A stretch of DNA of 64,000 bases, taken from positions 29,126-93,125 of the forward strand of contig JAWLHX010000003.1 in assembly GCA_041690105.1 (NCBI GenBank), read 5' to 3'. Both the position numbers and the translations under genes were made by a program. Under the pieces are notes generated by a model. The model was not told the origin of the DNA. It saw only the letters and a list, made by a program, of their open reading frames with translations, and did not search any database. The DNA is from Phycisphaerae bacterium. GTDB taxonomy: Bacteria > Planctomycetota > Phycisphaerae > FEN-1346 > JAACEH01. Below are positions 10,472-35,746 of the stretch, piece after piece (position 1 is the stretch's first letter; the number at the start of each line of letters is the position of its first letter).

Positions 10472-10491
10472 TGCAGGTACTCCGTGAATTT

Positions 10492-11421
10492 CTAGAGGGT
10501 AAGAAGCAGGAAAAGGGCCCCCGCCGCCCAGCAATAGTAGGCGAAGACGTGGAAGTTCTGGTGTCGCAGCAGGGCCAGGAAGAAGCGGATGGCCAGTATG
10601 CCGCTGATCATGGCGGCCAGGGCCCCGACCAGCAGCGGCACGAAGCCGATTGATGCTCCGCTTTCCATGGCGTCCGGAACTTTGAGCAGGCCGGCCCCGC
10701 CAATTGCAATTACCGACATCAGGAACGAGAACTCGGCCGCGGCCACAGGGTCGATGCGCCGCCAGGTGCCGGTGATTACGGTGGTGCCCGAACGCGTAAT
10801 GCCGGGCAGAATGGAGATGGCCTGGCCGATGCCCATCAGCAGGGCAGCCATCCAGGTAGGTTTCGATTGCCAGTCGTCGGTTGCGGTGGTACGGGCGACG
10901 GCCAGCAGCAGGGTGATGATGGCCAGGACGATGAGAAAGGGAATGATCGTTCCGGCAATCAGCGAGACAATGCCCACCAGGGCTATGGGCAGAATCTCCA
11001 GCGGGGTGATGCGGGTTTTTTGCCGGGCCCAGCGGATGGACCAGACCAGGCAGCCGCTGATCATGATCATGGTGGCGGCAAAGTGTGGCTCCTCGAAGCG
11101 GGCCTCGCACCAGTCCTTGAACATAATGCCGATGAAACCGGCCGGCACGCTGGCCAGCAGAAGCTTCAGCACGTAGCGCCAGGCCTGCTTATCGCCTCCT
11201 GGCCGGCCGAGCATGCCCAGCCCCAGCCGCCAGATGCGCTGACGGTAAACAATCAAAACCGAAAGCAGGGTAGCCATGTGCACGGCCACCTCAAAAAAGA
11301 TGCCGGGGATGTCGAGCCCGAGCACCGCTTTGCCCAGTACCAGGTGGCCGGAGCTGGAGACGGGGAAGAATTCCGTCAGCCCTTGCAGCACACCGAGAAT
11401 CAGCGCATCCAACCAGGTCAT
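10492..11421 (-). CDS. uppP: Undecaprenyl-diphosphate phosphatase
   Basis: LTEFFPVSSSGHL motif, 8 TM helices, 309 aa: classic BacA/UppP. Confidence 0.9.
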   Translation of the reverse strand: MTWLDALILGVLQGLTEFFPVSSSGHLVLGKAVLGLDIPGIFFEVAVHMATLLSVLIVYRQRIWRLGLGMLGRPGGDKQAWRYVLKLLLASVPAGFIGIMFKDWCEARFEEPHFAATMIMISGCLVWSIRWARQKTRITPLEILPIALVGIVSLIAGTIIPFLIVLAIITLLLAVARTTATDDWQSKPTWMAALLMGIGQAISILPGITRSGTTVITGTWRRIDPVAAAEFSFLMSVIAIGGAGLLKVPDAMESGASIGFVPLLVGALAAMISGILAIRFFLALLRHQNFHVFAYYCWAAGALFLLLTL

Positions 11422-18519: not shown

Positions 18520-18654
18520 ACCGGATGGGTTGCCGAGTCAAGCATCAGGGGCAGGATGCCCATGCCACTGAAAACGGCCGCAACAAATAAAGACCAGTTG
18601 CACGCCGTGTCGGTTGCCGCCACTGATGGCAACTGACCGCAGTGCGACACGAAA

Positions 18655-21600
18655 ATGAGGTTTGGTACATTGTCTGATAACCTGCAGCAGAACAACCTGA
18701 CGCCTGAGCAGCGTGGCCTTATCGGTCGCCTTATCGGCTTCTGCCTGAAGAACCGCCTGGTGGTCTTTCTGTCCACGCTGCTGATTGCCGGCCTGGGCCT
18801 GCTTGTGGCTCCGTTCGACTGGCAGATTGAGGGCGTGGCCCGCTATCCGATTCCCGTCGACGCCATTCCGGATATTGGCGAAAATCAGCAGATTGTCTTC
18901 ACCTCCTGGCCAGGCCGCTCGCCGCAGGATGTCGAGGATCAGGTCACTTACCCGCTGACGGTCGCCCTGCAGGGTTTGCCGCAGGTAAAGGTAGTGCGCA
19001 GCGTGTCGATGTTCGGCTTCTCGTCAATCTACGTGATCTTCAATGACAATGTCGACTTCTACTGGTCGCGCTCGCGGGTGCTGGAAAAGCTGCGCAGTCT
19101 GCAGGCCGACACATTGCCCGACGACGTGCGCCCGGTGCTCGGCCCCGACGCCACGCCGCTGGGGCAGATTTACTGGTATACGCTGCAGGGTCGCGATGCC
19201 GACGGCAATCCCGCCGGCGGCTGGGACCTGGAAGAGTTGCGCACGCTGCAGGACTGGTATGTGCGCTATTGGCTGCAGGCGGCGGAAGGCGTGTCGGAAG
19301 TGGCCAGCGTGGGTGGCTATCAGCGCGAGTACCAGATTGACGTCGACCCCGATGCCATGCGGGCCTACGGCGTTACGCTGAACGATGTTTACCGGGCCGT
19401 CAAGGGCTCCAACCTGGATGTCGGGGCCCGATCGGTAGAAATTAACCGCGTCGAGTACTTCATACGCGGCATCGGTTTTATCAAGGACACCTCGGACATC
19501 GAAGACAGCGTCATCCGGGTCAACGCCGACAATGTGCCGGTGGTGGTGAGCAACGTGGCCCGGGTCAGCCTGGGGCCGGCCGAGCGTCGCGGGGCGCTGG
19601 ACAAAGGCGGATCGCAGGCCGTTGGCGGCGTGGTCGTGGCTCGTTATGGCAGCAATCCGCTGGCTGTCATTCGCAACGTAAAGCAGCGCATAGAGGAAAC
19701 TCGCGAGAGTCTGCCGACCAAGGCCGTGGTCGACTTCGGCCAGGTGGACCGCCGACAGGTGGCCGATTATGCAGCCGAGCACGGCTTCAGGGCCTTCGCC
19801 GACGATCGCTCGATGGATCACGAGGCCTGGCTTGCTCATCTGCGGAGCCAGCCGCGCGAGCAGTGGCCGGCCTGGGTCAATACCAGCACGGTTACTGTGG
19901 TGCCTTTCTACGACCGCACGGGGCTGATTTACGAGACCCTTGGCACGCTGAATTCGGCCCTTGTGCAGCAGGTGCTCATCTGCACGATTGTCGTCATCCT
20001 GATGGTCATGCACCTGCGCAGCAGCATCCTCATCAGCGGTATGCTGCCTCTGAGCATTCTGCTGACTTTCATCGGCATGCGCCTGGTGGGGGTTGACGCG
20101 AATGTGGTATCGCTGGCCGGCATTGCCATTGCCATAGGCACGGTGGTCGACGTGGGCATTGTTATTGTCGAAAACATGCTGCGCCATCTCAGCGAGGCCG
20201 CGCCCGAGGAGTCGCGCCTCAATGTGCTGCACCGGGCGGCCGCCGAGCATGGTGGGGCGGTTGTCACGGCTTCGCTGACCACCATCATCGGCTTTCTGCC
20301 AGTCTTTACGCTCACGGCGGCCGAGGGCAAAATGTTCCGCCCGCTGGCCTGGACCAACACGCTGGCCTCGGTTGCCTCCATCATCATCGCCCTGACCATA
20401 CTGCCGGCCGCGGCCTACGTGCTTTTCTGCATCAAACACCAGGACGCCAAGCTGCGGCGTCATGTTCTGCATGGACTGCTGGTGGCGGTGGGCGTGGTTG
20501 TGGGTTTCCTGCTTTCGTGGTGGGCGGGGCTGGCCCTGCTGTTTTTCGGCAGCTTCTACATTATCCGCGACATACTGCCGCAAAGGGCCGCCCGTTGGGC
20601 TCCGCGGCTGGCCAACCTGCTGGCCGTGGCCTTTGTGGGCATACTGCTGAGCTGGTATTGGGAACCACTGGGCGTGGAGCGCGGTTTGCTGCGCAATATC
20701 ATTTTCGTCGGTGGCATCCTGGGCCTGCTGCTGGGCAGCGCCTGGCTGTTTCAGCACTACTACACGCGGATTCTGGCCTGGTGCCTCGATCATAAGGCGG
20801 CCTTTCTGTCGCTGCCATTGGCCATTGCCGTGGCCGGCCTGCTGATCTGGCTGGGGCCGAAGATGTTTCTGGGCCCGCTCGACGCCACGCCGCAAATGAG
20901 CGACGCCCAGTATCAGCAGGCCTCGCTTCTGGAGCGCGGCCGCTATAACTGGAACCGAAGTGTCGACCGGGTTATCGGCGGCTTCAAAAAGGACCTCGCC
21001 CAGATTCGCAACGAGCCCTGGGCCGATGATTCGGCTCCGGCCGACCGCTGGATCAGCAATCGCGGCATTGTGGCCCGATTTAAGTGGACGCTGGCTCGCG
21101 CCTGGAACGGTATTGGCCGCGAATTCATGCCGCCGCTGGATGAGGGCTCGTACCTTTACATGCCCACCACCATGGCCCACGCCTCCATTGGCGAGGTGCT
21201 GGATGCCATGGGCAAGCAGGATATGGCCTTCCAGAATATTCCGGAAGTCGAGTCGGTGGTCGGCAAGCTGGGGCGGGCAGAGTCGGCCCTGGACCCGGCA
21301 CCTACCAGCATGATCGAGACGGTCATCAACTATAAGAGCGAGTACATTACCGACCGCAATGGCCGGCGGGTCAACTTCCGCTACGACCGATCCAGCGGCC
21401 AGTTTGCCCGCGACGACCGTGGCGAGCTGATCCCCGACCCGCGCGGCCGGCCGTTCCGCCAGTGGCGCGACCATATCCGCACGCCGGACGACATCTGGGA
21501 CGAAATCCTGATGGCTGCCGAAATTACCGGCACCACCTCGGCCCCGCGCCTGCAACCGATTGCTGCCCGTATTGTGATGCTGCAGAGCGGCATGCGGGCG

Positions 21601-22776
21601 CCCATGGGTGTAAAGGTGACCGGGCCCAGCCTGGAGGCCATCGAAGACTTTGCCCGGCAGATCGAAACTCATCTGAAGGACGTGCCGACCGTCATGGCCG
21701 ATGCCGTAGTGGCCGACCGTATTGTCGGTACGCCATACCTGGAGATTGTGCCCGACCGCAACGCCCTTAAGCGCTACGGCGTCACCATCGACGCTTTTCA
21801 GCAGGTGGTGGAGGTGGCCATCGGCGGCCGCCCGGTAACCCGCACAGTGGAGGGCCGCGAACGTTTCCCGGTACGCGTCCGTTACCCGCGCGAGTTGCGC
21901 AGTTCGGTCGATGATATCGACGGCATTCTCTTCAGCGGGTCGGGCGGGGCCCAGATTCCGCTGGCCCAACTGGCCGAGATTCGCTACGTCCGCGGCCCGC
22001 AGATGATCCGCAGCGAAGACACCTTCCTGACCGGCTACGTGCTGTTCGACATGCTGCCGGGCAATGCCGAGGTGGACGTGGTAGAGGCGGCCCGCGATCA
22101 TCTGCAAAAAATGGAAGAGCAGGGCCGCTTGCTGCGCCCACGCGGAGTGAGCTACGAGTTTGCCGGCTCCTACCAGAACCAGGTGCGGGCCTCGCAGCGG
22201 CTCATGCTTATACTGCCGCTGGCCCTGCTGGTGATCTTCCTGATCATTTACCTGCAGTTTCGCCGCACGACGACCACGCTGCTGGTCTTCTCGGGCATTG
22301 CTGTCGCCTGGGCCGGCGGATTCATCATGCTGTGGCTCTACGATCAGCCCTGGTTCCTGGAGTTCAGCGTCTTCGGGGTGCCCATGCGAACGCTCTTTCA
22401 GGTGGGCACGGTCAACCTGAGCGTGGCCGTCTGGGTAGGCTTTCTGGCCCTTTTCAGCATTGCTACCGACGACGGCGTGGTCATGGGAACTTACCTGGAA
22501 CAGGTCTTCCGCGAAGATCGCCCGCGCAGCATCAGCGACATACGCAAAATGGTCGTGCTGGCCGGCAGTCGCCGCGTTCGGGCCTGCCTGATGACCACCC
22601 TGACCACCACGCTGGCCCTGCTGCCGGTCATGACCTCGCAGGGACGGGGCAGCGACATCATGTTGCCCATGGCCATACCCACCTTTGGCGGCATGACCAT
22701 CGCCATCATCACCATGCTGGTGGTGCCGGTGCTTTACGGCTGGCTCCAGGAGCGCAAGTTCCGCCGCTCGCAGTAG
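18655..22776 (+). CDS. Heavy-metal efflux RND permease (CusA/CzcA, HME family), unusually long (1373 aa)
   Basis: 12-TM RND architecture with HME-family blocks (VVENMLRHL, AIAIGTVVDVGIVIVEN); about 330 extra residues in periplasmic loops compared with ~1045-aa CusA/CzcA. The antisense 1027-aa ORF is a shadow. Confidence 0.85.
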   Translation: MRFGTLSDNLQQNNLTPEQRGLIGRLIGFCLKNRLVVFLSTLLIAGLGLLVAPFDWQIEGVARYPIPVDAIPDIGENQQIVFTSWPGRSPQDVEDQVTYPLTVALQGLPQVKVVRSVSMFGFSSIYVIFNDNVDFYWSRSRVLEKLRSLQADTLPDDVRPVLGPDATPLGQIYWYTLQGRDADGNPAGGWDLEELRTLQDWYVRYWLQAAEGVSEVASVGGYQREYQIDVDPDAMRAYGVTLNDVYRAVKGSNLDVGARSVEINRVEYFIRGIGFIKDTSDIEDSVIRVNADNVPVVVSNVARVSLGPAERRGALDKGGSQAVGGVVVARYGSNPLAVIRNVKQRIEETRESLPTKAVVDFGQVDRRQVADYAAEHGFRAFADDRSMDHEAWLAHLRSQPREQWPAWVNTSTVTVVPFYDRTGLIYETLGTLNSALVQQVLICTIVVILMVMHLRSSILISGMLPLSILLTFIGMRLVGVDANVVSLAGIAIAIGTVVDVGIVIVENMLRHLSEAAPEESRLNVLHRAAAEHGGAVVTASLTTIIGFLPVFTLTAAEGKMFRPLAWTNTLASVASIIIALTILPAAAYVLFCIKHQDAKLRRHVLHGLLVAVGVVVGFLLSWWAGLALLFFGSFYIIRDILPQRAARWAPRLANLLAVAFVGILLSWYWEPLGVERGLLRNIIFVGGILGLLLGSAWLFQHYYTRILAWCLDHKAAFLSLPLAIAVAGLLIWLGPKMFLGPLDATPQMSDAQYQQASLLERGRYNWNRSVDRVIGGFKKDLAQIRNEPWADDSAPADRWISNRGIVARFKWTLARAWNGIGREFMPPLDEGSYLYMPTTMAHASIGEVLDAMGKQDMAFQNIPEVESVVGKLGRAESALDPAPTSMIETVINYKSEYITDRNGRRVNFRYDRSSGQFARDDRGELIPDPRGRPFRQWRDHIRTPDDIWDEILMAAEITGTTSAPRLQPIAARIVMLQSGMRAPMGVKVTGPSLEAIEDFARQIETHLKDVPTVMADAVVADRIVGTPYLEIVPDRNALKRYGVTIDAFQQVVEVAIGGRPVTRTVEGRERFPVRVRYPRELRSSVDDIDGILFSGSGGAQIPLAQLAEIRYVRGPQMIRSEDTFLTGYVLFDMLPGNAEVDVVEAARDHLQKMEEQGRLLRPRGVSYEFAGSYQNQVRASQRLMLILPLALLVIFLIIYLQFRRTTTTLLVFSGIAVAWAGGFIMLWLYDQPWFLEFSVFGVPMRTLFQVGTVNLSVAVWVGFLALFSIATDDGVVMGTYLEQVFREDRPRSISDIRKMVVLAGSRRVRACLMTTLTTTLALLPVMTSQGRGSDIMLPMAIPTFGGMTIAIITMLVVPVLYGWLQERKFRRSQ

Positions 22777-23379: not shown

Positions 23380-24837
23380 GTGCATTACGACAATCTGCAA
23401 CAGCTTCTGCAACGTTACGAGGCGGCCGGCGAGGTCTGCCGCATTACGGCCGAGGTCGACCCGGAGCTGGAGATTACCGAAATTGCCGACCGCCAGGTAA
23501 AGAGCGGCGGGCCGGTGCTGTGGTTCGACCGGGTTCGCGGCTCGTCCATGCCGCTGGTTATTAACACCTTCGCCTCGGCCCGTCGCACGGCCTGGGCCTT
23601 GGGAGTCGAGCATTGCGATGAGATCGGCCGGCGTATCGGCGAGTTGCTCAAGCCCCGGCGCCCTGAAGGCCTGGTCGATAAGGTCCGCAGTCTGGCCGAG
23701 GTGGTTGAACTGTCGCGCTGGGGGCCGCGACTGACCGACCGGGCCCCATGCCAGGAGGTGGTCCTGACCGGCTCCGAGGCATCGCTCGACTTACTGCCCA
23801 TACTCAAGTGCTGGCCCGGCGATGGCGGCCGATTCATCACCCTGGGCGGAGTTTACACTGCTCCTCCCGGCGGTGGCCCGCTGAATGCCGGAATGTACCG
23901 GCTTCAGGTTTACGATGCCCGCACAACCGGCATGCACATCCATGCTCATCATGACGGCTGGCGGCACTACCGGCAATGGGAACAGGCCGGCGAGCCGATG
24001 CCTGCGGCCGTGGTGCTTGGCGGCGATCCGGCGGTCATTTATGCCGCCACCGCGCCCATGCCACCGGGCCTGGACGAAATGCTGCTGGCCGGCTTCATTC
24101 GGCGAAAAGCAGTCGACATGGTCCGCTGCAAAACCGTTGACCTGCAGGTGCCGGCCCAGGCCGAGATTGTCATCGAGGGCACCGTGGCCGCCGGCGAGCG
24201 ACGCACCGAAGGCCCCTTTGGCGATCACACCGGCTATTACAGTCTGAAGGATGAGTACCCGATTTTCCGCGTCTCGGCCATTACCCATCGCCGCGATGCC
24301 ATCTACCCCACAACCATTGTCGGCCGCCCGCCAATGGAAGATTGCTTCCTGGGCAAGGCCACCGAGCGAATCTTCCTGCCGATGATGCGGACCATTCTGC
24401 CGGAGGTGGTCGATTACGACCTGCCGCTGTTTGGCGTCTTCCACAACTTCGTCTTCGTCGCCATTCGCAAGGCCTACGCTTACCATGCCCGCAAAGTCAT
24501 GCACGCCCTGTGGGGCATGGGGCAGATGATGCTGAGCAAGTTCATCATCGTGGTGGATGACGATACCGACGTGCACAGCGTGGACGAGGTTATGTGGCGG
24601 GTGGGCAACAATGTCGATCCGGAGCGCGACATCGAGTTTACGCGCGGCCCGCTCGATGCCCTGGATCATGCCAGTCCGCAGCCGCTGGCCGGATCGAAGA
24701 TGGGTATCGACGCCACCCGAAAATGGCAGGGCGAGGGCCAGGTGCGGCCGTGGCCGGACGATATTCGCATGAAGCCGGAGATTGTCGACCTGGTGACGCG
24801 CCGCTGGAAGGAATACGGTTTCGATGGCCAGGGCTGA
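23380..24837 (+). CDS. ubiD: UbiD-family decarboxylase (menaquinone/ubiquinone biosynthesis; futalosine-pathway late step)
   Basis: 485 aa with the UbiD N-terminal block (EVCRITAEVDPELEITEIADR...GGPVLWFD) and prFMN-binding region; operon context with UbiX, UbiA and UbiE. Confidence 0.85.
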   Translation: MHYDNLQQLLQRYEAAGEVCRITAEVDPELEITEIADRQVKSGGPVLWFDRVRGSSMPLVINTFASARRTAWALGVEHCDEIGRRIGELLKPRRPEGLVDKVRSLAEVVELSRWGPRLTDRAPCQEVVLTGSEASLDLLPILKCWPGDGGRFITLGGVYTAPPGGGPLNAGMYRLQVYDARTTGMHIHAHHDGWRHYRQWEQAGEPMPAAVVLGGDPAVIYAATAPMPPGLDEMLLAGFIRRKAVDMVRCKTVDLQVPAQAEIVIEGTVAAGERRTEGPFGDHTGYYSLKDEYPIFRVSAITHRRDAIYPTTIVGRPPMEDCFLGKATERIFLPMMRTILPEVVDYDLPLFGVFHNFVFVAIRKAYAYHARKVMHALWGMGQMMLSKFIIVVDDDTDVHSVDEVMWRVGNNVDPERDIEFTRGPLDALDHASPQPLAGSKMGIDATRKWQGEGQVRPWPDDIRMKPEIVDLVTRRWKEYGFDGQG

Positions 24838-25594
24838 CGAAACAGGCGCAAAGTCGGCGGCCGACGTGCAACAGATGTTCGACCAGATTGCGCCGCGGTA
24901 CGATCTGCTGAATCATCTGCTGAGCGGCGGCCTGGATGTGCTGTGGCGGAGGCGGGCGGCCCGGCTGGCCAGCCAGGGGCTCGTCGGTCAAGCGGGCGAG
25001 GCGCCGCTGGTAATCGATTTGTGTTGCGGCACTGGCGATTTATCGGCCGCCCTGGCTCGACGACTGGCGTCATCGGGCGGGGCCGCGGGGCGAGTGATAG
25101 GGCTGGATTTTTCGCCGGCCATGGTGGCCCAGGCCGTGCGAAAGTTCCGCCGGCATCGGAACTTGGAGTTTCTGGTGGGCGATGCCCTGGCGGTTCCGCT
25201 GGCGGACGGCTCGGCCAGCGCCGTGACCTGTGCCTTCGGCATGCGCAACGTGGCCAGCGTGGAATTGTTCGTCCGGCAGTGCTGTCGCCTGCTGCGTCCG
25301 GGCGGCCGGCTGGTGGTGCTGGAGTTTTTTCGCCGCCGGCGAGGTTTGCGACAATCGCTTTTCGACTTCTATTTCCGGCGCATTGTTCCTATTCTGGGGC
25401 GATGCGTATCGGGGCACCGGTCGGCTTACAGTTATCTGCCGAGCTCGGTTGCCGGATTTCTCTCGGCCGATGATTTTGCAGAAATGCTGAAGGCCGCGGG
25501 ATTGCAGCAGATTGAGACCAGAACATTGGCGGGCGGCGCGGCAACAATTGTTTGCGGCGTCACTGCAACTGATGCCGAAGGAGGCTGCAAGTGA
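24824..25594 (+). CDS. ubiE: Demethylmenaquinone/ubiquinone C-methyltransferase (UbiE/MenG family)
   Basis: FDQIAPRYDLLNHLLSGGLDVLWRR and SAM-binding VIDLCCGTGD motifs; overlaps the ubiD-like gene by 14 nt. Confidence 0.85.
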   Translation: MARADETGAKSAADVQQMFDQIAPRYDLLNHLLSGGLDVLWRRRAARLASQGLVGQAGEAPLVIDLCCGTGDLSAALARRLASSGGAAGRVIGLDFSPAMVAQAVRKFRRHRNLEFLVGDALAVPLADGSASAVTCAFGMRNVASVELFVRQCCRLLRPGGRLVVLEFFRRRRGLRQSLFDFYFRRIVPILGRCVSGHRSAYSYLPSSVAGFLSADDFAEMLKAAGLQQIETRTLAGGAATIVCGVTATDAEGGCK

Positions 25595-27507
25595 GTGGCA
25601 TGGAGTGTCCGCGCTGCTATTTTGACGAGCAAGGTGAGGCTTCAGGCGGCAGTCGGCCCTGCGGCGCGTGCGGCCGAAGCTATCGACCGGCGGTTAACGT
25701 CTACCTGGGCGTCGTCAGCCTGATCTACCTGGTTTTCGTCCGCTACATCAGCTACATACTCACCGGCGAATTCTTCAAGCTGGGCACCTGGCCGCCGCAA
25801 ACGGTCTTCGACTGGGCCCAATGGCCCATCAACGTGCAATACCGGCCCGAGTGGCACCTTATTCTCGGCGCCTTCCTTGCTCTGCTGGTGCTGGTGCCTG
25901 TCGTCATGGGATTATTGTACGGCAAGCGAGGCGGGTATCTGCTGGCTTTCATCGCCCTGGTGGCCGGCCCCTCGTGGGTGGTAGCCCTGATGCTGTTCTT
26001 CTGCGTCTGGCTGGCCGGCGGCTGGACCCTGCGCCTGCACAACAAGGTGGCCTCGGTCATCATAGGTTGCATGCCGGTCTGGATTTATTACCTTGTGACC
26101 AGTCGCCCGACCACCGAGGTGACACTGCCGGGTGCCTATTTTGTGCCGGCCGTGCTGTCCATCGTCTTCAGCCTGCTGCTCATAGCGCTGATTATCGCCC
26201 CCCTGCGCTCGCTGCGCTGGAATACGCGGGTGGTGGGCATTGCCCTGGTTGTCCTGCTGGCCTCTCCGGTCGTCTCCTACAAAATGTTTGTCGGCGAAGA
26301 CTCCATGCAGTACGCCTTTCTGGCCCGCGACTATGGCATGGACGGCGATACCTTCCGCGACTCGCATAACAGTCAGATCATTCAGGACTTGCTGGCTACG
26401 GCCGAAAAGCAGGTGGACGAGAAGCTGAGCAAGCTGGCCGCCGAGCAGGCCGACTTCGGCACCGAGCCCGACATGACAACGCCGCAGGAACGTCAGCAGA
26501 TGGTTGAGGGCGAGCTTGGCGTGCTGAAGATCGACTTCGTCATCGGCTTCCGGGCCGAGATGGATCGCCGCCGCCGGGCCGTCATCGAGCAGTCCGAGGC
26601 GTTCCTGGCCCGTTACCCCGACAGCCGCCACGTGCCGGACGTGCTTTACACAATTGCCCAGGCCCAGGACATGGAGATCGACACAAGCGCCCTGTCCGAG
26701 GCTCGGGCCGTGGCCCTGCCCATTCGCTTCGATCCGTCGCGGGCGGTGGCCGAGACCGAGACCATCTGGCAGCGTCTGCTGAAGGAGTTCGGCCAGACGA
26801 AGTACGCGGCCACGGCCATGGTCAAGCTAGCCGATCTGCAAGCCCGCCGCGGCGACTTTGCCGAAGCCGTCGGCATGTACAACGCCATGATCGAGCGCTT
26901 CGGCGACGAAATCAGGCAGCCGCTGCCCGATACCAGCAGCCTCTCGGTTTTTACCGATCTGCTGAGCGTGGGCCAGCGCCTGAAGCAGGCCCGCCGCGTG
27001 CGGCATCTGGAAGACCAGTATCGCCTGGCCCAGGCTCATCGGGCCCTGCTGCTGGCAAATTCCGACTGCCCGGCCTGTGGCGGCGAATTGCTGAAGAAAT
27101 ACCTGGGCCTTGGCCGCTACCAACCGCCGCACGAGCGACAGGCACTGCTCGGGAAGCTGATGGTCGAGTGTCCGACCGACCCGCTGGTCGATAATCTGGC
27201 TTACGAAATAGCTTTGCTGCAACCCAACGACCGGCTGCGGATGGAGGCTCTGGAGCAGGCCGTGCAGCAATATGCCGGCACCGATGGGGCCGCCCTCAGC
27301 CTTTACGAAATGGCCCGCCTGGACAGCGCCGCCGAAGACGCCTCGGCCCGCCGGTTGGAGCGAGCCCTGCGGCACTATTACGATTTGCGGCAACAGTACC
27401 CGACATTCTACCTGGCGCCGATGGTGGACAAGCAGATTGCCGTGCTGGAGCATGCCGTGCGGCGGGCCTCCTCCGGCGCAGCCAACGAATTCAGGGGTGG
27501 ACTGTGA
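25591..27507 (+). CDS. Uncharacterised 638-aa membrane protein: N-terminal Zn-ribbon, ~8 TM helices, C-terminal ~380-aa helical-repeat (TPR-like) domain; embedded in the menaquinone operon
   Basis: CPRCYFDEQ...CGACGRSY zinc ribbon; multiple hydrophobic helices between aa 30 and 260; helical repeats (YAATAMVKLADLQARRGDFAEAVGMYNAMIE...). ATGA start/stop overlaps with ubiE upstream (25591-25594) and ubiX downstream (27504-27507). Confidence 0.6.
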   Translation: MSGMECPRCYFDEQGEASGGSRPCGACGRSYRPAVNVYLGVVSLIYLVFVRYISYILTGEFFKLGTWPPQTVFDWAQWPINVQYRPEWHLILGAFLALLVLVPVVMGLLYGKRGGYLLAFIALVAGPSWVVALMLFFCVWLAGGWTLRLHNKVASVIIGCMPVWIYYLVTSRPTTEVTLPGAYFVPAVLSIVFSLLLIALIIAPLRSLRWNTRVVGIALVVLLASPVVSYKMFVGEDSMQYAFLARDYGMDGDTFRDSHNSQIIQDLLATAEKQVDEKLSKLAAEQADFGTEPDMTTPQERQQMVEGELGVLKIDFVIGFRAEMDRRRRAVIEQSEAFLARYPDSRHVPDVLYTIAQAQDMEIDTSALSEARAVALPIRFDPSRAVAETETIWQRLLKEFGQTKYAATAMVKLADLQARRGDFAEAVGMYNAMIERFGDEIRQPLPDTSSLSVFTDLLSVGQRLKQARRVRHLEDQYRLAQAHRALLLANSDCPACGGELLKKYLGLGRYQPPHERQALLGKLMVECPTDPLVDNLAYEIALLQPNDRLRMEALEQAVQQYAGTDGAALSLYEMARLDSAAEDASARRLERALRHYYDLRQQYPTFYLAPMVDKQIAVLEHAVRRASSGAANEFRGGL

Positions 27508-28181
27508 GCAAGTCCCGGGGCAATCCGCCGATTGTCATCGGCATCAGCGGGGCCAGTGGCGGCTGCTATGCGGTGCGGCTGGTGGCCGAGTTGCTGCGCC
27601 TGGAGGTGCCCGTGGCCCTCGTCGTCTCACGGCAGGGTCTGGCCATGCTAATCAGCGAATGCGGTCTTGAGGTTGACGCCGACGGCCGCCCGCGATGGCA
27701 GTCGTTATGGCCCCAGGCCGACACCCCCGCGGGGTTGCTGCGCTGGTACCCGAACGATCAGCTTGATGTCAGCATAGCCAGCGGCAGCAGGCCATCGGCC
27801 GGCATGGTCGTCTGCCCGGCATCGCTGAACACGGTGGGGGCCTTGGCCGCAGGCATGGCCGGCACTCTTATGCACCGCGCCGCCCAGGTGGCCCTGAAGG
27901 AGCGCCGCAAGCTGGTTATTGTGCTGCGCGAGACTCCGCTGGCCACGCTGCATCTGGAGAAGCTGGTTGATCTTTCGCGCAGCGGAGCGGTTATTCTGCC
28001 GGCCATTCCGGCCTTTTACGATAAGCCGCAAACGCTGGACGAGGTAGTCGATTTCGTCGTAGCTCGCATTCTTGACCAGTTCGCCCTGGAGCACCACATT
28101 GGCCGGCGATGGCAGGCGACGGACGAGGCTAGCCCGGGCCGGTCAGCAGTTGACTCACCAAGCGAGGATCCCACTTCTTGA
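27504..28181 (+). CDS. ubiX: Flavin prenyltransferase UbiX (prFMN synthase)
   Basis: PIVIGISGASGGCYAVRLVAELL N-terminal flavoprotein motif, ~200 aa core. Confidence 0.85.
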   Translation: MSKSRGNPPIVIGISGASGGCYAVRLVAELLRLEVPVALVVSRQGLAMLISECGLEVDADGRPRWQSLWPQADTPAGLLRWYPNDQLDVSIASGSRPSAGMVVCPASLNTVGALAAGMAGTLMHRAAQVALKERRKLVIVLRETPLATLHLEKLVDLSRSGAVILPAIPAFYDKPQTLDEVVDFVVARILDQFALEHHIGRRWQATDEASPGRSAVDSPSEDPTS

Positions 28182-29152
28182 GCGGCAAGAAGGGACATGA
28201 TCATCAGTCGCCGTCCGGCAATAGCGGACAAAAGTCACCTGGCCGGCGGGGGCAGGGGCGGTTGGCTCGCCTGGCTCTTGTGCTCGAGACCATAAAATTC
28301 AGCCATACACTTTTTGCTCTGCCATTTGCTGCCGTCGGCGCGGTCTGGGCCCGGCAAGGCGTGCCGGGGCTGTACGAAAGCCTGCTGCTCCTTTTGGCGA
28401 TGGTGGCCGCCCGCACCTGTGCCATGTCGTTCAATCGGGTAATCGATGCCCGCCTGGATGCCGCCAACCCTCGAACCAGCAGCCGGGCCATTCCTGCCGG
28501 GTTGCTAAGTCGTCGCTATGTGCTCGCACTCGGCATAATCAGCGGCTCGATATTCCTGGCCGCGGCCGCTGCGTTCTGGCCACTGCTGGGTAACCCCTGG
28601 CCGGCCATGCTGGCTCTGCCCGTGCTGGGGCTGCTCATCGGCTACAGTTACACCAAGCGCTTCACGATGTTGTCGCACTATGTGCTTGGCGCCTCGCTGG
28701 GCCTGGCGCCGGTTGGCGCCTGGGTCGCCCTTACCGGCGGCATCGGCTGGATGCCCGTCATGCTGGGGACGGCGGTTATCTTCTGGACGGCCGGTTTCGA
28801 CATCCTTTACAGCCTGCAGGATATGGACCACGACCGTCGCAGTGGGCTGCGCAGCATTCCCGCGCGGCTGGGGCCGGAGCGCAGTCTGCTCATGGCCGAG
28901 TTCAACCATCTGCTGAGCATGGGCCTGCTGCTGGCGCTCTACCATTTAAGGCTCGATGATTACATCGACGGTCCGCGGCTCGGCTGGCTCTACATGGGCG
29001 GGGCCATCGTCTTTTATGCCCTCATATTTTACGAACACCGGCTGCTGAAGCCCGACAACCTCAGCCGCCTGAACCGGGCATTCTTCCACGCCAACGCAAT
29101 GGGCAGCATGCTGTTTGCCGCATTTGCCGTGGCCGATGTTCTGTTAGTATGA
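28178..29152 (+). CDS. UbiA-family polyprenyltransferase (4-hydroxybenzoate / 1,4-dihydroxy-6-naphthoate prenyltransferase; MqnP-like)
   Basis: NRVIDARLDAANPRTSSR aspartate-rich motif, 8-9 TM helices; ATGA overlap with ubiX. Confidence 0.8.
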   Translation: MSGKKGHDHQSPSGNSGQKSPGRRGQGRLARLALVLETIKFSHTLFALPFAAVGAVWARQGVPGLYESLLLLLAMVAARTCAMSFNRVIDARLDAANPRTSSRAIPAGLLSRRYVLALGIISGSIFLAAAAAFWPLLGNPWPAMLALPVLGLLIGYSYTKRFTMLSHYVLGASLGLAPVGAWVALTGGIGWMPVMLGTAVIFWTAGFDILYSLQDMDHDRRSGLRSIPARLGPERSLLMAEFNHLLSMGLLLALYHLRLDDYIDGPRLGWLYMGGAIVFYALIFYEHRLLKPDNLSRLNRAFFHANAMGSMLFAAFAVADVLLV

Positions 29153-29179: not shown

Positions 29180-30328
29180 TTGACTCGACCGACAGAGCAG
29201 TTGCACGATGATATTCACCAGGAACTGACCGATCCGGCCCTGCACCCCATAGCCGACGCCGTGGCCGAAGGCCGACGACTCTCGGCCGAGCAAGGCCTGC
29301 TGCTGGCCCGCACGCACGACTTGCTGACCCTGGGCCGCCTGGCCAGCATTGCTCGCCGCAGGCGCAGCGGGGGCACAACCTGGTACATCGTCAACAGGCA
29401 CATCAACTACAGCAACATCTGCAGCAACAAGTGCCGCTTCTGCGCCTTTCGCCGCACGGCCGAGGCCAAAGACGCTTACGTCATGGAACTGCAAACGATT
29501 ATGCTGGAGGCCGAGCGGGCCGCCGAGCAGGGCGCCACCGAACTGCACATTGTGGGCAGCCTGCATCCTGATTTGCCATTCGATTATTACCTGAAGATGA
29601 TCGGCGGGCTGCATCAGAAGCACCCCCAGATTCATCTGCAGGCCTTCACCGCCGTCGAGATTGCCCACCTTGCCGAGCGTGCCGGAAGCGACACGCAACA
29701 GGTGCTCGCCCAGCTCAAGCAGGCCGGGCTTGGCTCGCTGCCCGGCGGAGGGGCGGAGGTTTTCAGCCCGCGCGTCAGGCAGATTGTCTGCCCCGAAAAG
29801 CTGCCGGGCGACCAGTGGCTGCGCATCATGGGCGAGGCTCACCAGCTTGGCTTGCCGAGCAACGCCACCATGCTCTATGGTCATGTGGAGACCGTTGAGG
29901 AATGGGTTGACCACCTGCTGGCCCTGCGCAGTCAGCAGGATGCCAGCGGCGGATTCATGACCTTTATCCCCCTGGCTTTTCATCCGCGAAATACCGACCT
30001 GCCCGAGGCCCGCGGCACGACCGGCATGATGGACCTCAGGATGATGGCCCTGGGGCGGCTGATGCTGGACAACATCCCGCACGTCAAGGCCTTCTGGATC
30101 ATGCTCGGCCTGCCGCTGGCCCAGCTTACTCAGCACTTCGGGGCCGATGACATCGACGGCACCGTGGTCCAGGAACGCATCACCCACGCCGCCGGGGCCA
30201 CCACCCCGCAGGCTCTCACGGTCGAGGACCTGCGCCAGCTTATCCGCGAGGCCGGCTTCCAGCCGCAGGAACGCAACACCGTCTACCGGCAGGTCGTCCG
30301 CCAAGGCTCTTCCTGGCACCTCGCCTGA
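29180..30328 (+). CDS. Radical SAM enzyme of the MqnC/MqnE (CofH-like) family, futalosine-pathway menaquinone biosynthesis
   Basis: CxxxCxxC cluster motif in HINYSNICSNKCRFCAF; ~380 aa; context with the late-step mqn genes. Confidence 0.7.
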   Translation: MTRPTEQLHDDIHQELTDPALHPIADAVAEGRRLSAEQGLLLARTHDLLTLGRLASIARRRRSGGTTWYIVNRHINYSNICSNKCRFCAFRRTAEAKDAYVMELQTIMLEAERAAEQGATELHIVGSLHPDLPFDYYLKMIGGLHQKHPQIHLQAFTAVEIAHLAERAGSDTQQVLAQLKQAGLGSLPGGGAEVFSPRVRQIVCPEKLPGDQWLRIMGEAHQLGLPSNATMLYGHVETVEEWVDHLLALRSQQDASGGFMTFIPLAFHPRNTDLPEARGTTGMMDLRMMALGRLMLDNIPHVKAFWIMLGLPLAQLTQHFGADDIDGTVVQERITHAAGATTPQALTVEDLRQLIREAGFQPQERNTVYRQVVRQGSSWHLA

Positions 30329-30506: not shown

Positions 30507-31133
30507 ATGGCGACCAGCATTCAGGTCATTTTCTACAGCACTTACGGGCACGTCTATAAACTGGCCGAGGCCGTGGTGGACGGAGCCAGGTCCATCGCCG
30601 ACACCGACGTCCAGTTGCTGCGGGTGGCCGAGACGCTGTCGGAGGAGATTCTGGGCAAAATGAATGCCATTGAAGCACAGAAGGCCTTCGCCCACGTGCC
30701 TGTGGCCCGCCCCGAAAAGCTGCCCGAGGCCGATGGCATTATCCTCGGTTCGCCCACACGCTTCGGCAACGTGACGGCCCAGATGCGTGCTTTTCTTGAT
30801 GCCACCGGCGACTCCTGGGTGAGCGGCAAGCTGATTGGCAAGGTCGGGTCCGGCTTCACCAGCACGGCCAGCCAGCACGGCGGGCAGGAGACCACTCTGC
30901 TGACGCTCTCCACCTTCTTCTTCCACCAGGGCATGCTGATTGCCGGGGTGCCTTACAGCTCGAAGGGATTGCTGACGCTCGAGGAGATGAGCGGGGGCAC
31001 ACCATACGGCGCCAGCACCATTGCCGGGGCCAAGGGCGAGCGCTGGCCATCGCAGAACGAGCTTGAAATCGCCAGGGCCCAGGGGCGTCACGTGGCCCGG
31101 GCAGCCAAGGCCATGAAGACTTATGCCGGTTAG
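30507..31133 (+). CDS. wrbA: NAD(P)H:quinone oxidoreductase WrbA (flavodoxin-like)
   Basis: [20 protein letters not shown]...[18 protein letters not shown]...[28 protein letters not shown] closely parallels E. coli WrbA. Confidence 0.9.
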
Positions 31134-32047: not shown

Positions 32048-33640
32048 TTACGAGACATACCTGGCATATTCCACCGCTCGCTTTTCGCGCAGGACGGTCA
32101 CCTGGATTTCGCCGGGGAAGGTCAGTTCGCTTTCGATCTTCAGGGCGATATCGCGGGCCAGTTTCATCGTCTCGGTGTCGGTGCTGCGATTGGCGTCCAC
32201 CATGACGCGGATTTCCCGGCCGGCCTGGATGGCAAAGGCCGACTCCACGCCCTGCTCGCGGAACGCCATGGCAATGGACTCCAGCTTCTCCAGTCGCTGC
32301 AGGTACCGTTCCAGCGATTCGCGGCGGGCGCCCGGTCGCGAGGCGCTGACGGCATCGGCCGCACTTACTATCCAACTGTAAATGTTGGTCGTGGGCTTCA
32401 GGTCGTGATGAGCGCTGGCTGCATCGACCACCTCCGGCGGTTCGCCGTAGCGGCGGCACAGGTCGCCGCCAATTTCCGGATGGCCGCCTTCCACCTCGTG
32501 ATCGACAGCCTTGCCGACGTCGTGCAGCAATCCGCAGCGGGTGGCCAACTGCGAATCCAGCCCAAGTTCCTCGGCTATCATGCCTGACAGGTGGGCTACC
32601 TCCACGGCGTGCTGCAGAACATTCTGCCCGTAGCTGGTGCGGAACTGCAGGCGTCCCAGCAGGGGGATAAGCTTGTTGTTGAGGCCGCGGATTTTCAGAT
32701 CGTGGACGACCTGCTTGCCGCCCTCGAGTATCTGCTGGTCAACCTCCTTGCGTGTCTCGGCCACCACCTCCTCGATGCGGGCGGGGTGAATGCGACCGTC
32801 AACTATCAGCTTGCTCATGGCCCGGCGGCCAATTTCGCGTCGCACGCTGTCGTGCCCGCTGACAATGACCACGCCCGGCGTGTCGTCAACTATCACGTCA
32901 ACTCCGGTGGCTTTCTCGAAGGCCCGGATGTTGCGACCTTCGCGGCCAATGACGCGGCCCTTCATCTCGTCGCTCGGAATATCGACCGACGAAACCGTGG
33001 CTTCGCTGGTGATGTCGCTGGCCATCCGCTGGATGCTCTGCACAATGATGTTGCGGGCCCGCTCTTCGCCCTCTTCGTTGGCCCGGTCGACGTGGTGGCG
33101 GATAATCTCGCCCTCTTCGTGCTCCATCTCCTGCGAAATCCGGGTAATAAACAACTCGCGGGCCTGCTCCTGACTCAGTCCGCTCAGTTCCTGCAGCTTC
33201 TGGGCCTGCTCGCCCAGGGCCTGCTGAACCTTCTGTTCGTTCTCCTGCAACTGCTGTTCCCGATCGCTCAGGCGGCGTTCGATGCTCTCGATGGTCTTTT
33301 CTTTGCGCAGCAGCAGTTCGCTCTGCTCGGTAACGCTGTCCTCGCGTTTGCTCAGGCGGCGCTCGAGTTCCTTGAGTTCGTTTCGGGTGCCTTCGGTCTC
33401 GCGCTGGAAGCTGTCCTTGCTCTTCAGCAGCCAGTCGCGGGCTTCAAGCTCGGATTCCTTCTTGATCTGATCGGCATCTCGCTTGGCCTGATCGACAATA
33501 CTCTGGGCCGACTGGTGCTTTTGTTTGAACTCGTTAAGTTTGCCTTTGGTATACAGCCAGAGTGCAACCAGGGCGACGACGATGATGGCCGCCAGGCTGG
33601 AGACAACGATAAGAGGCACATTTGCAACGGTGGTCAGCAT
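32048..33640 (-). CDS. rny: Ribonuclease Y
   Basis: N-terminal TM helix, long coiled coil, KH domain ([25 protein letters not shown]) and HD domain ([19 protein letters not shown]...LLHDVGKA); 530 aa. Confidence 0.9.
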
Positions 33641-34641
33641 GGATTCGATCCCCTTTCTGCCGCGCGGGGCCCGTTATGGGCAGCGCTTCGGCCGTGCCAG
33701 TGTGGCAGAGGATCGCCGGCGATGGGGCAGGGGCTTTTGGCTGAAGCTCGAAAAATCGCTGTGGGAGCGACCACTTGAGCAGGCCAATTAACTGCTACCG
33801 TCTCGCATTCTGGAGATGGAGGCCTAACAGTCGCCAGGAGATAGACTTAGGCATCATGCAACAAGGATTAATGGACGGTCGCCTCGATCTTTGCCGCAGC
33901 TATCGGGCTGCAGCAACCCCGCAGTTCCCCCGGCGATAACGTCTCCGCCGCAGAGGATTGGTGTCGGAAAGATGCGGTACGATTGCGACTTCAATGGATC
34001 CGGCCCCTTTTGATCAGTGGTTTCAGGTACAGAAACCGTTTATGAGGGCTTTACTTTTGAATTACGTCCATTTACTCGCTGATGATCATTAAATCTATCG
34101 TGCGGCGGTTGCAGCTCCAGCCCCAGGTTCGCCGGCCGCGGCTCCTGTATATCAGAATACCGTTGCCCGGGCGAACTTCAGCGACTCCGCGAATTGGCCG
34201 AATCGGCCCGGCGGCGTCGATTAACCAAGTTCGGACGCGGTGTCGCGGCATTCTGCCGCCAAGCCCCTGGCAAATTCCAGAGCGGGCCCAAATCCGAACC
34301 TTATTTAGAACAACCAGACAAATCGAATCAAACTTTATGACTTTTTAGTGTCTACGTCAAGCGCAAAGCGGCCACAGGCCGGCGGCGGGTGGGCCGCAGG
34401 GAGTGTCGGCGGTTACCTGCTTGCCGCTCAATGCCCGGCTGCGACTGTGTTTGATGCTTGTCAGCAGGGCGGCGGAACCCTACAATCCACGTATTCCAAG
34501 CGTGTGTTCGGGGTCGAATAATATATCCGCCGGCTGCTGCCGGATGCGGGCGGTTCTGTCGGCTCTGCTTTCAATTTGAGCAAATCCGGTGCTTTTTGCG
34601 GGGGCCTGCCGTGTGCCTCGCCTGGAAAGAGATGAAAAACG

Positions 34642-35493
34642 ATGAGTTTTCGCACCCTGATGATAGGCGACATTGTCGGCAAACCCGGCCGCAGTGCAGT
34701 AGAAGCAATGGTTGGCAACCTGATCAAGAGCGAGCAGATCGACCTGGTAATTGCCAACGCCGAGAACAGTGCCGCCGGCTCCGGAATTACTCCTTCAATA
34801 TATGATGGCCTTCGCCAGGCCGGTGTGGACGTCATTACCATGGGCGACCACTGCTACCGGAAGAAGGAATCGATCCCCCTTTACGAGACCAAGGACCGCT
34901 TGCTGCGCCCGGGTAACCTGCCTGAGGTGGCGGCCGGACGCGGCTGGTGCGTGATCGAGACCCGCAACGGCTCGCACGTGGCGGTCATCAACATGCAGGG
35001 TCGCACCTTCATGAAGCCCATCGATTGCCCATTTGCGGCCATGGATCGGGCCCTGGAGGAGATCGGGCAGATGACGCAGCTGGTGTTTGTCGATTTCCAT
35101 GCCGAAGCCACCAGCGACAAGATGGCCATGGGCTGGTTTCTGGATGGCCGGGTGACGGCCCTGGTGGGCACACATACCCATGCCCAGACGGCCGATGAGC
35201 GGGTGCTGCCGGGCGGCACGGCCTTTATCAGCGACCTGGGCATGAGCGGGCCGTACGACAGTGTGCTGGGCCGCCGCAAGGACCGTGTTATCCGCCATTT
35301 GACTACGGGCATGCCGACCTTCTTCGAGGTTGCCACCGGCGACGTACGCGTCTGCGGGGCGATTATCACCGCCGATGAGCAGACGGGGCGGGCTACGAGC
35401 ATTCGCCGTATAAATCTCTCGTACGTGGCCGAAGCCGACCAGGCCTACGACGCTGCCGACGGCAAGGGTGGCGGCGGAGGAGACGAGATCTGA
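34642..35493 (+). CDS. ymdB: YmdB-family metallophosphoesterase (2',3'-cyclic-nucleotide phosphodiesterase-like, TIGR00282)
   Basis: MSFRTLMIGDIVGKPGR...ANAENSAAGSGIT...GDHCY...GTHTHAQTADE metallophosphatase motifs typical of YmdB; classic genomic partner of rny (divergent here). Confidence 0.8.
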   Translation: MSFRTLMIGDIVGKPGRSAVEAMVGNLIKSEQIDLVIANAENSAAGSGITPSIYDGLRQAGVDVITMGDHCYRKKESIPLYETKDRLLRPGNLPEVAAGRGWCVIETRNGSHVAVINMQGRTFMKPIDCPFAAMDRALEEIGQMTQLVFVDFHAEATSDKMAMGWFLDGRVTALVGTHTHAQTADERVLPGGTAFISDLGMSGPYDSVLGRRKDRVIRHLTTGMPTFFEVATGDVRVCGAIITADEQTGRATSIRRINLSYVAEADQAYDAADGKGGGGGDEI

Positions 35494-35746
35494 AGCCAGG
35501 AAACTTCGGAGCGTAGCAGTAACTGGCGCGCGGCGGAAATTTGAGGGACAGAAATGGTCAATCTGGATTTGCGAGGAAGCCTCTGGTTCAAGATTGGATT
35601 CTTCTTCGGACTGGGTTTGACTGCGTCAGGGGTGCTTGCCTGGGTTGTAGTTTATGTAGCAACCTGGGTATTTTCATTCTGGTTCTTATAAAGCAATACG
35701 GTCGGTGGGGGCGCCCACCGGTGTCGGTATTGAATGATAATAGAGT

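Follow-up and report, generated by a model that had tools for sequence, protein, structure and literature searches.

The window analysed here, a 64-kb stretch of DNA from a Phycisphaerae bacterium, carries a cluster of menaquinone genes in the order mqnL-ubiE-ORF-ubiX-mqnP-mqnE (Table 1). Our ORF call agrees with an earlier note on this DNA, which had placed an open reading frame (ORF) of 638 amino acids between ubiE and ubiX. The ATGA overlaps reported in that note read differently: the 4-nt overlaps are GTGA at the ubiE/ORF junction (25591-25594), GTGA at the ORF/ubiX junction (27504-27507) and TTGA between ubiX and the mqnP-like ubiA gene (28178-28181), and the mqnL-type ubiD gene and ubiE share 14 nt. 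A UbiA-like prenyltransferase and a radical SAM enzyme of the MqnC/E type, both announced by the note, do lie downstream; the latter passes the equivalog cutoff for MqnE, and the MqnP exception models score the former at 204-243 bits, under their cutoffs. Judged from its sequence, the ORF is a real gene, since its GC3 (0.81) is the same as that of its neighbours and its architecture is kept in homologues down to ~20% identity. The GTG start at 25591 is supported by the AAGGAGG that precedes it. The overlap with ubiE is nevertheless probable and short of certain, because the equivalent of M4 (ATG at 25600) is the first residue in most homologues.

Table 1. Genes of the menaquinone cluster and features of the 638-aa ORF (positions in the window; residues are those of the ORF)
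Feature	Position	Strand	Basis or remark
UbiD decarboxylase, MqnL-type	23380-24837	+	TIGR03701, 597 bits vs cutoff 496
UbiE/MenG demethylmenaquinone methyltransferase	24824-25594	+	Pfam/NCBIfam matches; stop overlaps ORF start
Shine-Dalgarno-like AAGGAGG	25578-25584	+	Read from sequence; 6 nt 5' of GTG, within ubiE end
638-aa ORF, subgroup A member of unnamed Planctomycetota membrane-protein family	25591-27507	+	
Zinc ribbon, C6/C9...C24/C27 (CxxC-14-CxxC), predicted cytoplasmic	25606-25671	+	Cys conservation
Polytopic membrane domain, residues 33-234	25687-26292	+	Hydropathy and AF2 pLDDT >90
GKRGG motif, residues 111-115	25921-25935	+	Invariant in subgroup A; 'LYR' in C and D
Hydrophobic helical hairpin, residues 116-143, GPS turn 126-128	25936-26019	+	AF2 and insertion
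VGxD(E)xxxY motif, residues 234-241	26290-26313	+	Directly past last TM helix; conserved family-wide
TPR-like all-helical C-terminal domain, residues 260-635, predicted periplasmic	26368-27495	+	
UbiX/MqnM flavin prenyltransferase	27504-28181	+	Start overlaps ORF stop
UbiA-family, MqnP-like polyprenyltransferase	28178-29152	+	PF01040 and TIGR01475 above cutoffs
MqnE aminofutalosine synthase (radical SAM)	29180-30328	+	TIGR03700, 474 bits vs equivalog cutoff 434.55

The product of the ORF has three parts. The C4 zinc ribbon recognised in the earlier note is present; its four cysteines are invariant in subgroup A of the family described below, occur also in subgroup B and are missing from subgroups C and D, and AF2 confidence is low over this region. 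Elsewhere we rely on an AF2 model built from a 134-sequence alignment (mean pLDDT 92), which supersedes a model from 14 sequences whose membrane domain reached a pLDDT of ~50. The membrane domain (helices 33-58, 87-125, 129-143, 152-169, 180-205 and 212-234) consists of six full transmembrane (TM) helices and a hydrophobic helical hairpin, not the roughly eight TM helices counted previously. Residues 87-125 are modelled as one continuous 39-residue helix, within which GKRGG forms a conserved basic patch; the hairpin is modelled as a pair of helices with a turn of three residues between them, and three members of the family carry a 13-aa insertion at its tip. The C-terminal domain is all-helical in the model, with two long stalk helices (260-288 and 298-341) ahead of repeats that adopt the helix-turn-helix solenoid fold of TPR proteins. 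The TPR-like domain of about 380 aa claimed earlier thus holds in the model, at ~375 aa, but Pfam TPR_6 scores 17.3 bits, under its cutoff of 26.3; it is the structure model that supports calling the domain TPR. The closest structural neighbours, all weak matches, are periplasmic TPR proteins.

No match to the membrane domain was found in Pfam, NCBIfam or PDB sequences (profile search, 0 matches) or by fold, and the domain therefore merits a family definition of its own. As the earlier note had supposed, the protein is not a named Mqn, Men or Ubi component: it scores above no NCBIfam or Pfam cutoff for these families. Its sole NCBIfam matches are sub-threshold, to YbgF/CpoB (TIGR02795; 31.7 bits against a cutoff of 90.1) and BamD/YfiO (TIGR03302; 22.7 against 81.4), and its sole Pfam match is TPR_6; its N-terminus, a zinc ribbon followed by a polytopic domain, is unlike the lipoprotein start of BamD or the signal-peptide start of YbgF. 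SCP2 (UbiJ), HemY_N and LapB-family models gave no Pfam or NCBIfam match in the ORF. Source annotations call the relatives just 'tetratricopeptide repeat protein', 'BamD/ComL family' or 'TolA-binding protein', and precomputed TPR_6 or YfiO matches are present in some of them.

A profile search with the membrane domain recovered 225 representatives, all of ~600 aa, which fall into four subgroups (A-D). A word-based search had returned a tiny family of 14 clusters, a count that the profile search overturned and that is an artefact of divergence. The family, which is specific to Phycisphaerae and related Planctomycetota, is conserved and has been shown to keep one and the same architecture, in which ~200 aa of polytopic domain precede ~350 aa of TPR-like domain, even in subgroup C, which is ~20% identical to the window ORF. 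The residues conserved family-wide are mainly Pro, Gly, Tyr, Arg and Trp at helix ends, and the C-terminal domain is triplicated in two members; these features, together with the modelled TPR solenoid, suggest a non-enzymatic protein. The long members had been considered as Rosetta-stone fusions, a reading that was rejected as they are merely C-domain triplications.

On which side of the membrane do the two flanking domains lie? In a charge-bias test of 134 sequences under the positive-inside rule, loops 2, 3 and 5 carry a net positive charge, loop 1 and the stretch past the last TM helix a net negative one, and the loops on both sides of the hairpin are strongly positive (loop 3 has a net charge of +3.5 in subgroup C). 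The hairpin sets the parity of the topology. An N-in/C-out model gives a summed K+R of 10.8 inside versus 4.4 outside, and a plain six-TM model gives 7.9 versus 7.3. The 13-aa tip insertion and the helix-turn-helix modelled by AF2 point to an even number of passes at the hairpin. Based on the positive-inside rule and this one indel, the N-terminus and zinc ribbon would be cytoplasmic and the TPR domain periplasmic, an orientation made less secure by the single 39-residue helix that AF2 draws for residues 87-125. Associations from cysteine co-variation in the C-terminal domain, used as a test for periplasmic disulfides, were weak (p = 0.005-0.1, uncorrected for phylogeny). UbiE, UbiX and UbiD work in the cytoplasm and would be out of reach of a periplasmic TPR domain; contact would be possible by the loops and the zinc ribbon alone.

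The earlier note had named a lack of synteny with menaquinone genes among homologues as a reason to give up its proposal. Such synteny was found: mqn genes flank the gene in 22 of the 26 subgroup-A loci outside the window, where ubiE-ORF-ubiX(-mqnP) is kept, and ubiX lies immediately downstream in 64 of 66 subgroup-C loci. Subgroup C also has ubiE immediately upstream (44/55 loci) and ubiA at most 1.7 kb away (39/57). The stop of the ORF overlaps the longest ubiX ORF in 20 of 20 subgroup-A loci and in 40 of the 66 from subgroup C. Altogether the operon position is conserved in ~86 of 92 assessable loci across these two subgroups; neighbours were counted by tblastn, and a greedy ORF-based labelling was set aside as noisy in GC-rich DNA. 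Starts and stops often overlap, and co-transcription is predicted with ubiE, ubiX and mqnP, and in other lineages with a gene for a DUF748/AsmA-like protein.

This second neighbour, of ~1400 aa, is encoded upstream of the family gene in subgroups A, B and D. It matches Pfam DUF748 at 20-40 bits, under the curated cutoff of 50, and YhdP, AsmA and GspN weakly; six loci have precomputed DUF748 matches with E ≤ 1e-5, and an N-terminal hydrophobic anchor is visible. Among mqn-flanked subgroup-A loci having >7 kb of upstream sequence, 11 of 12 carry the gene, and it directly adjoins the ORF in four subgroup-A loci (L001, L006, L010 and L030). In subgroups B and D, one context each, the DUF748-ORF pair has haem-related or glycolipid genes near it, an MGDG synthase among these neighbours, and no mqn genes: in the single subgroup B example (L032) DUF748 is directly adjacent (profile E 2e-43), and in that of subgroup D (L113) the two genes overlap by 14 nt (E 5e-97). 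Four subgroup-A loci also lack all five mqn genes on either side and yet keep DUF748-ORF; they retain 42-44 of 44 invariant residues in the ORF and occupy at least two places on a neighbour-joining tree. The gene is adjacent in just two of 33 subgroup-C loci with ≥6 kb of upstream sequence, and no DUF748 gene lies within the 64-kb window, from which we conclude that the mqn and DUF748 linkages seldom coexist outside subgroup A. A CusCBA efflux operon occupies the position where relatives of the window's genome carry the DUF748 gene, which is why this linkage is invisible in the window.

What could such a protein do among menaquinone genes? That a generic TPR membrane protein landed in the operon accidentally and is functionally unconnected to it would agree with the annotation of its relatives as plain TPR, BamD/ComL or TolA-binding proteins. 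The synteny census effectively refutes this reading, which we regard as extremely improbable; the membrane domain is moreover family-specific with invariant motifs, and the BamD and YbgF model scores lie far under their cutoffs. A cytoplasmic metabolon scaffold, whose TPR domain would tether UbiD/MqnL, UbiX, UbiE and MqnP in the manner of UbiJ/UbiK for ubiquinone or LapB for LPS, would explain why synteny is strong and deep, and translation coupled, with the genes for just this set of enzymes. TPRs are protein-binding modules, some members carry repeated copies of the domain, and a plain six-TM reading of the hydropathy puts the C-terminus in the cytoplasm. Charge bias, however, clearly disfavours that orientation, loop 3 of subgroup C included, and the hairpin-tip insertion, the modelled helix-turn-helix and, weakly, the best structural neighbours tell against it as well. 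The gene also persists in loci devoid of mqn genes and in subgroups B and D. The TPR domain being predicted periplasmic, the protein differs from the accessory factors UbiJ/UbiK, LapB and HemY (hemCDXY), whose counterpart would be cytoplasmic; relative to LapB, which joins TPRs to a C-terminal rubredoxin, its domain order is opposite, with an N-terminal zinc site parted from the TPRs by the membrane domain. We consider such a scaffold rather unlikely. Of the earlier note's suggestion, a scaffold or membrane organiser for the late menaquinone steps, the association with these genes is upheld by the synteny, whereas a cytoplasmic TPR scaffold is weakened by the topology, the mqn-less loci and the contexts of subgroups B and D. 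A periplasmic TPR chaperone like CcmI, NrfG or YfgM, acting on quinone- or haem-dependent respiratory proteins, might be co-expressed so that cofactor supply matches client maturation. It appears improbable to us. In comparison with these proteins and with BamD and YbgF/CpoB, the ORF has a domain of six TM helices plus a hairpin where they have a lipid anchor or a lone TM helix, no lipoprotein signal and a different genomic context.

A further possibility is that the protein is a partner of DUF748 and has no specific role in menaquinone synthesis; it would anchor or load a periplasm-spanning lipid-transfer protein, and in Phycisphaerae the mqn genes would share its operon for historical reasons. 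The adjacency and even overlap of the two genes in subgroups A, B and D fit this idea, as do their persistence in the scattered mqn-less loci and a periplasmic TPR domain. LetA and PqiA load lipids at the inner membrane and work with the MCE tunnel proteins LetB and PqiB. Like them, the ORF has a cytoplasmic CXXC-n-CXXC ribbon directly before a polytopic TM domain, and their genes, like the family gene in related loci, adjoin a gene for a very large periplasm-spanning lipid-transfer protein, a putative one in the case of the family. The spacing in the ORF (n = 14, with TM1 beginning at residue 33) falls among those of LetA ribbons (n = 11-18), and the architecture parallels that of LetA, which loads LetB (PMC13017536); homology of the TM domain to PqiA or LetA was found neither with the Pfam PqiA model nor with the LetA fold. 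Set against this, ~95% of subgroup C loci still have the gene flanked by ubiE and ubiX, with DUF748 seldom nearby, chance operon hitch-hiking seldom survives divergence to ~20-40% identity, and the window's genome keeps ubiE-ORF-ubiX with no DUF748 gene in the 64 kb. A partnership divorced from menaquinone is to our mind doubtful.

We tentatively prefer, at something short of an even chance, a model in which the protein is a non-enzymatic inner-membrane adaptor that connects the late steps of menaquinone synthesis with a partner in the envelope, a function that we infer by guilt by association. Its membrane domain would sit beside the prenyltransferase MqnP in the cytoplasmic membrane, where the cytoplasmic loops and the conserved patch of basic residues (GKRGG; 'LYR' in subgroups C and D) may contact polyprenylated naphthoate or menaquinone, or the enzymes that handle them. 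The periplasmic TPR array would then dock an envelope partner, which in many lineages might be the AsmA-like DUF748 bridge. In this way the protein would link new quinone, or in paralogous subgroups other lipids, with the periplasmic face of the envelope. A bolder version, in which the family is the inner-membrane partner of the AsmA-like bridge and the pair exports new menaquinone toward the periplasmic side or the outer membrane in Phycisphaerae, we hold to be unlikely. Were such an export route true, it would provide both an accessory factor for the late futalosine pathway and an AsmA-like system specific for one cargo, each the first of its kind.

What are the implications for the pathway and for the envelope? 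MqnP, MqnL and MqnM were predicted by comparative genomics, and the late futalosine steps comprise prenylation, prFMN-dependent decarboxylation and methylation, with no accessory protein described (PMC4746308). The inner-membrane partners of AsmA-like lipid bridges have been posed as an open question (PMC10345924). The family reported here is unannotated and, throughout a bacterial class, is embedded in the late futalosine gene set; an AsmA-like gene is its immediate neighbour, sometimes overlapping it, in three of the four subgroups. If either link is functional, the family would be a testable candidate for the hand-over of a hydrophobic cofactor or of bulk lipid from its site of synthesis to the rest of the envelope.

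Profile identities of the flanking genes place the 638-aa ORF in a late-menaquinone context, as the earlier note had claimed: its neighbours are an MqnL-type UbiD, UbiE, UbiX, an MqnP-like prenyltransferase and MqnE. The start/stop overlaps reported there are also real, but none of the junctions is ATGA. Read from the sequence, the overlaps are GTGA with UbiE (25591-25594) and with UbiX (27504-27507), and TTGA between UbiX and UbiA (28178-28181); the UbiD and UbiE frames share 14 nt. An AAGGAGG site (25578-25584) lies 6 nt 5' of the GTG start of the ORF, and in most homologues the start corresponds to its Met4 (ATG 25600). The composition of the ORF is consistent with that of its neighbours (GC3 0.81 versus 0.71-0.82). 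In the window a quinone-using enzyme, WrbA, is tacked onto this quinone-synthesis operon; among the related loci examined, none was found to have wrbA beside its operon. A complete CusCBA-type efflux operon, 600 nt from mqnL, fills the slot held in nearly all related loci by a DUF748 gene, and no DUF748 gene is present within the 64-kb window. Genes for DXP synthase (DXS), which supplies isoprenoid (quinone side-chain) synthesis, and for a pyruvate:ferredoxin oxidoreductase (POR) subunit lie ~10 kb downstream. POR, NAD kinase and DXS genes are likewise downstream of the family gene in the related loci L001 and L006, therefore wider regional synteny is conserved. The housekeeping cluster appears unrelated to the ORF finding.

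Coordinates of the ORF, its operon and other features of the window
Feature	Position	Strand	Basis or remark
791-aa protein	5696-8071	+	squalene-hopene-cyclase-like repeats (sub-threshold to weak matches) and DUF4159
CusCBA-type heavy-metal RND efflux operon	14175-22776	+	complete
OEP outer-membrane factor	14175-15740	+	CusCBA operon
CusB-like fusion protein	15676-18519	+	two HMBD heavy-metal-binding domains and DUF3347
AcrB/CusA-like pump	18655-22776	+	1373 aa
MqnL-type UbiD decarboxylase	23380-24837		TIGR03701, 597 bits, above cutoff
UbiE/MenG methyltransferase	24824-25594		profile search
638-aa ORF	25591-27507	+	ORF call
UbiX flavin prenyltransferase	27504-28181		profile search
UbiA-family, MqnP-like prenyltransferase	28178-29152		profile search
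Aminofutalosine synthase MqnE	29180-30328		TIGR03700, 474 bits vs 434.55
WrbA-type NAD(P)H:quinone oxidoreductase	30507-31133	+	NF002999, 271 bits; directly 3' of mqnE
Housekeeping cluster	32048-37486
RNase Y	32048-33640	minus
YmdB-like phosphoesterase	34642-35493
Exonuclease VII large subunit	35747-37486
DXP synthase	39019-40941
Pyruvate:ferredoxin oxidoreductase subunit	42058-43287

A word-indexed search with the ORF returned only 14 clusters, none with a name beyond 'hypothetical protein [Phycisphaerae bacterium]'. A membrane-domain profile run against 1.84 billion representatives matched 225 proteins at E <= 1e-3, of which 92 reach E <= 1e-10; almost all are 550-700 aa long. They form four subgroups split by the N-terminus: A, which contains the window ORF, has a zinc ribbon and the motif GKRGG; B has the ribbon without GKRGG; C and D lack the ribbon and begin with 'DVWSRTxPKYRxRA' and 'DHHRGxxPLLRPT', respectively. 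The C-terminal domain is common to all four. Positions P79, P86, P103, Y110, P186, VGxDELxY, F338, S345 and DN are conserved family-wide, and the conserved residues do not look catalytic. Subgroup C, ~20% identical to the window protein, comes from Phycisphaerae or Phycisphaerales, in some cases from complete 5-6 Mb genomes, under the name 'tetratricopeptide repeat protein'; subgroup D comes from Planctomycetota MAGs. Seven loci (L011, L013, L015, L017, L021, L022 and L024) belong to MAGs titled 'uncultured Anaerolineales/Anaerolineaceae bacterium' despite a Phycisphaerae-type locus, and one relative (P0253) is titled 'cyanobacterium TDX16'. The titles probably reflect mislabelled bins and are not evidence of the family outside Planctomycetota.

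In the close family all four cysteines of the CxxC-14-CxxC ribbon (C6, C9, C24, C27) and GKRGG (residues 111-115) are invariant. The membrane part came out poorly in an AF2 model built from 14 sequences; a second model, built from 134, reached a mean pLDDT of 92 and a pTM of 0.89. In it the membrane domain comprises helices 33-58, 87-125, 129-143, 152-169, 180-205 and 212-234, followed by long helices 260-288 and 298-341 and helical repeats to residue 635. The ~8 TM helices of the earlier note give way to six plus a hydrophobic hairpin. Among 30 close relatives the net charge is +2.0, +2.3 and +1.3 for loops 2, 3 and 5, and negative for loop 1, loop 4 and the stretch that follows the last TM helix; the values for 120 distant relatives are +3.3 (N-terminus), -2.4 (loop 1) and +3.5 (loop 3). 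If loops 2 and 3 are both cytoplasmic, residues 116-143 must form a hairpin. The AF2 model has two helices with a 3-residue turn there, and three members carry a 13-aa insertion exactly at the tip. An N-in/C-out model gives a summed K+R of 10.8 inside versus 4.4 outside; a plain six-TM model with the C-terminus inside gives 7.9 versus 7.3. As this bias and the established positive-inside rule favour N-in/C-out, the most likely location of the TPR domain is the periplasm. Two long members, P0072 (1275 aa) and P0276 (1101 aa), have one membrane domain and three tandem C-domains of ~340 aa each, with no foreign domain. A binding module behaves in this way, and the two proteins may be natural variants in the length of the periplasmic arm.

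Which genes keep company with the family? Outside the window, ubiE and/or ubiX/ubiA adjoin the gene in 22 of 26 distinct subgroup-A loci, usually in the full order mqnL-ubiE-ORF-ubiX-mqnP-mqnE where mqn genes flank it. Locus L028 (926-3795, protein P0005) departs from this order: it reads ubiE-ORF-ubiA, with a 4-nt overlap, and lacks an intervening ubiX. In L005 ubiX is followed by a beta-helix protein in place of ubiA. Across 75 distinct metagenomic loci of subgroup C, ubiX is directly downstream in 64/66 assessable cases, ubiE directly upstream in 44/55 and ubiA within 1.7 kb in 39/57; all 25 loci longer than 15 kb contain both ubiE and ubiX. The longest ubiX ORF reaches back over the stop of the gene in 20/20 loci of subgroup A and 40/66 of subgroup C. 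The earlier note had set loss of synteny in homologues against its own proposal; that test does not refute it, and the association with late menaquinone genes is deep and specific.

The second partner is a ~1400-aa upstream gene, mutually orthologous across loci, with an N-terminal anchor and sub-threshold matches to DUF748, YhdP, AsmA and GspN. It occurs, often right next to mqnL, in 11 of the 12 mqn-flanked subgroup-A loci whose upstream sequence exceeds 7 kb, and is nearby in only 2/33 subgroup-C loci. In four subgroup-A loci the ORF is directly 3' of DUF748 and no mqn genes were found, on both flanks of L001, L006 and L010 and on the upstream side of L030, whose contig stops 50 nt past the ORF. 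Of the 44 invariant columns these ORFs retain 42-44, and they are not a single clade in an NJ tree; the outer flanks of three of the loci match those of mqn-containing relatives. In the one subgroup-B context (L032, JGI 3300033145) a DUF748-like gene (1218 aa, E 2e-43) precedes the family gene (9001-10806), and a haem cluster of hemC, hemD/cobA, two radical SAM genes and AhbA/B-like regulator-type proteins lies downstream; this single example brings to mind HemY, a TPR membrane protein of E. coli hemCDXY that is itself unexplained. In the one subgroup-D context (L113 5866-13125, GCA_021371965.1) a DUF748/YhdP-like gene (E 5e-97) runs 14 nt into the family gene, and an MGDG-synthase-like lipid glycosyltransferase comes next, an arrangement that fits a lipid-related role for the pair.

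There are thus two recurrent partners, and neither accounts for everything. The place beside DUF748 is kept without mqn genes in the four A loci and the B and D examples, which argues for a function not confined to menaquinone synthesis; that the protein is purely a DUF748 partner is nevertheless rather doubtful, as the place between ubiE and ubiX is kept without DUF748 in subgroup C and in the window, which argues for a real menaquinone link. With the same gene order in view, chance placement in the operon is scarcely credible. A cytoplasmic metabolon scaffold, one form of the scaffold for late menaquinone steps that the earlier note proposed, shares the menaquinone link, but it is unlikely: UbiD, UbiX and UbiE are cytoplasmic enzymes that a periplasmic TPR domain could not reach, and contact could occur only via the loops and zinc ribbon. 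The earlier note was substantially right in what it observed, details aside, and its interpretation is partly supported: the menaquinone link is supported and the scaffold is weakened. The C-domain resembles BamD, YbgF and YfgM as a generic TPR fold only, failing their family cutoffs. We consider a periplasmic chaperone for respiratory proteins improbable.

Given the dual partners, the probably periplasmic TPR domain and residues that do not look catalytic, we tentatively favour a non-enzymatic inner-membrane adaptor, which might link the place where polyprenyl-quinone is made with a partner in the periplasm; in many lineages this would be the AsmA-like bridge. The nearest working analogy is LetA/PqiA, lipid loaders of a partner that spans the periplasm, which share with the ORF a zinc ribbon and a TM domain (PMC13017536); tests for homology found none. 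Comparative genomics predicted MqnP, MqnL and MqnM with no mention of an accessory factor (PMC4746308), which inner-membrane proteins partner AsmA-like proteins is among the open questions named in the literature (PMC10345924), and our literature search found no paper combining Phycisphaerae, menaquinone and futalosine. The protein represents an undescribed family that combines familiar parts with a membrane domain that has no known relative, and whose dual gene-neighbourhood signal is unusually strong.
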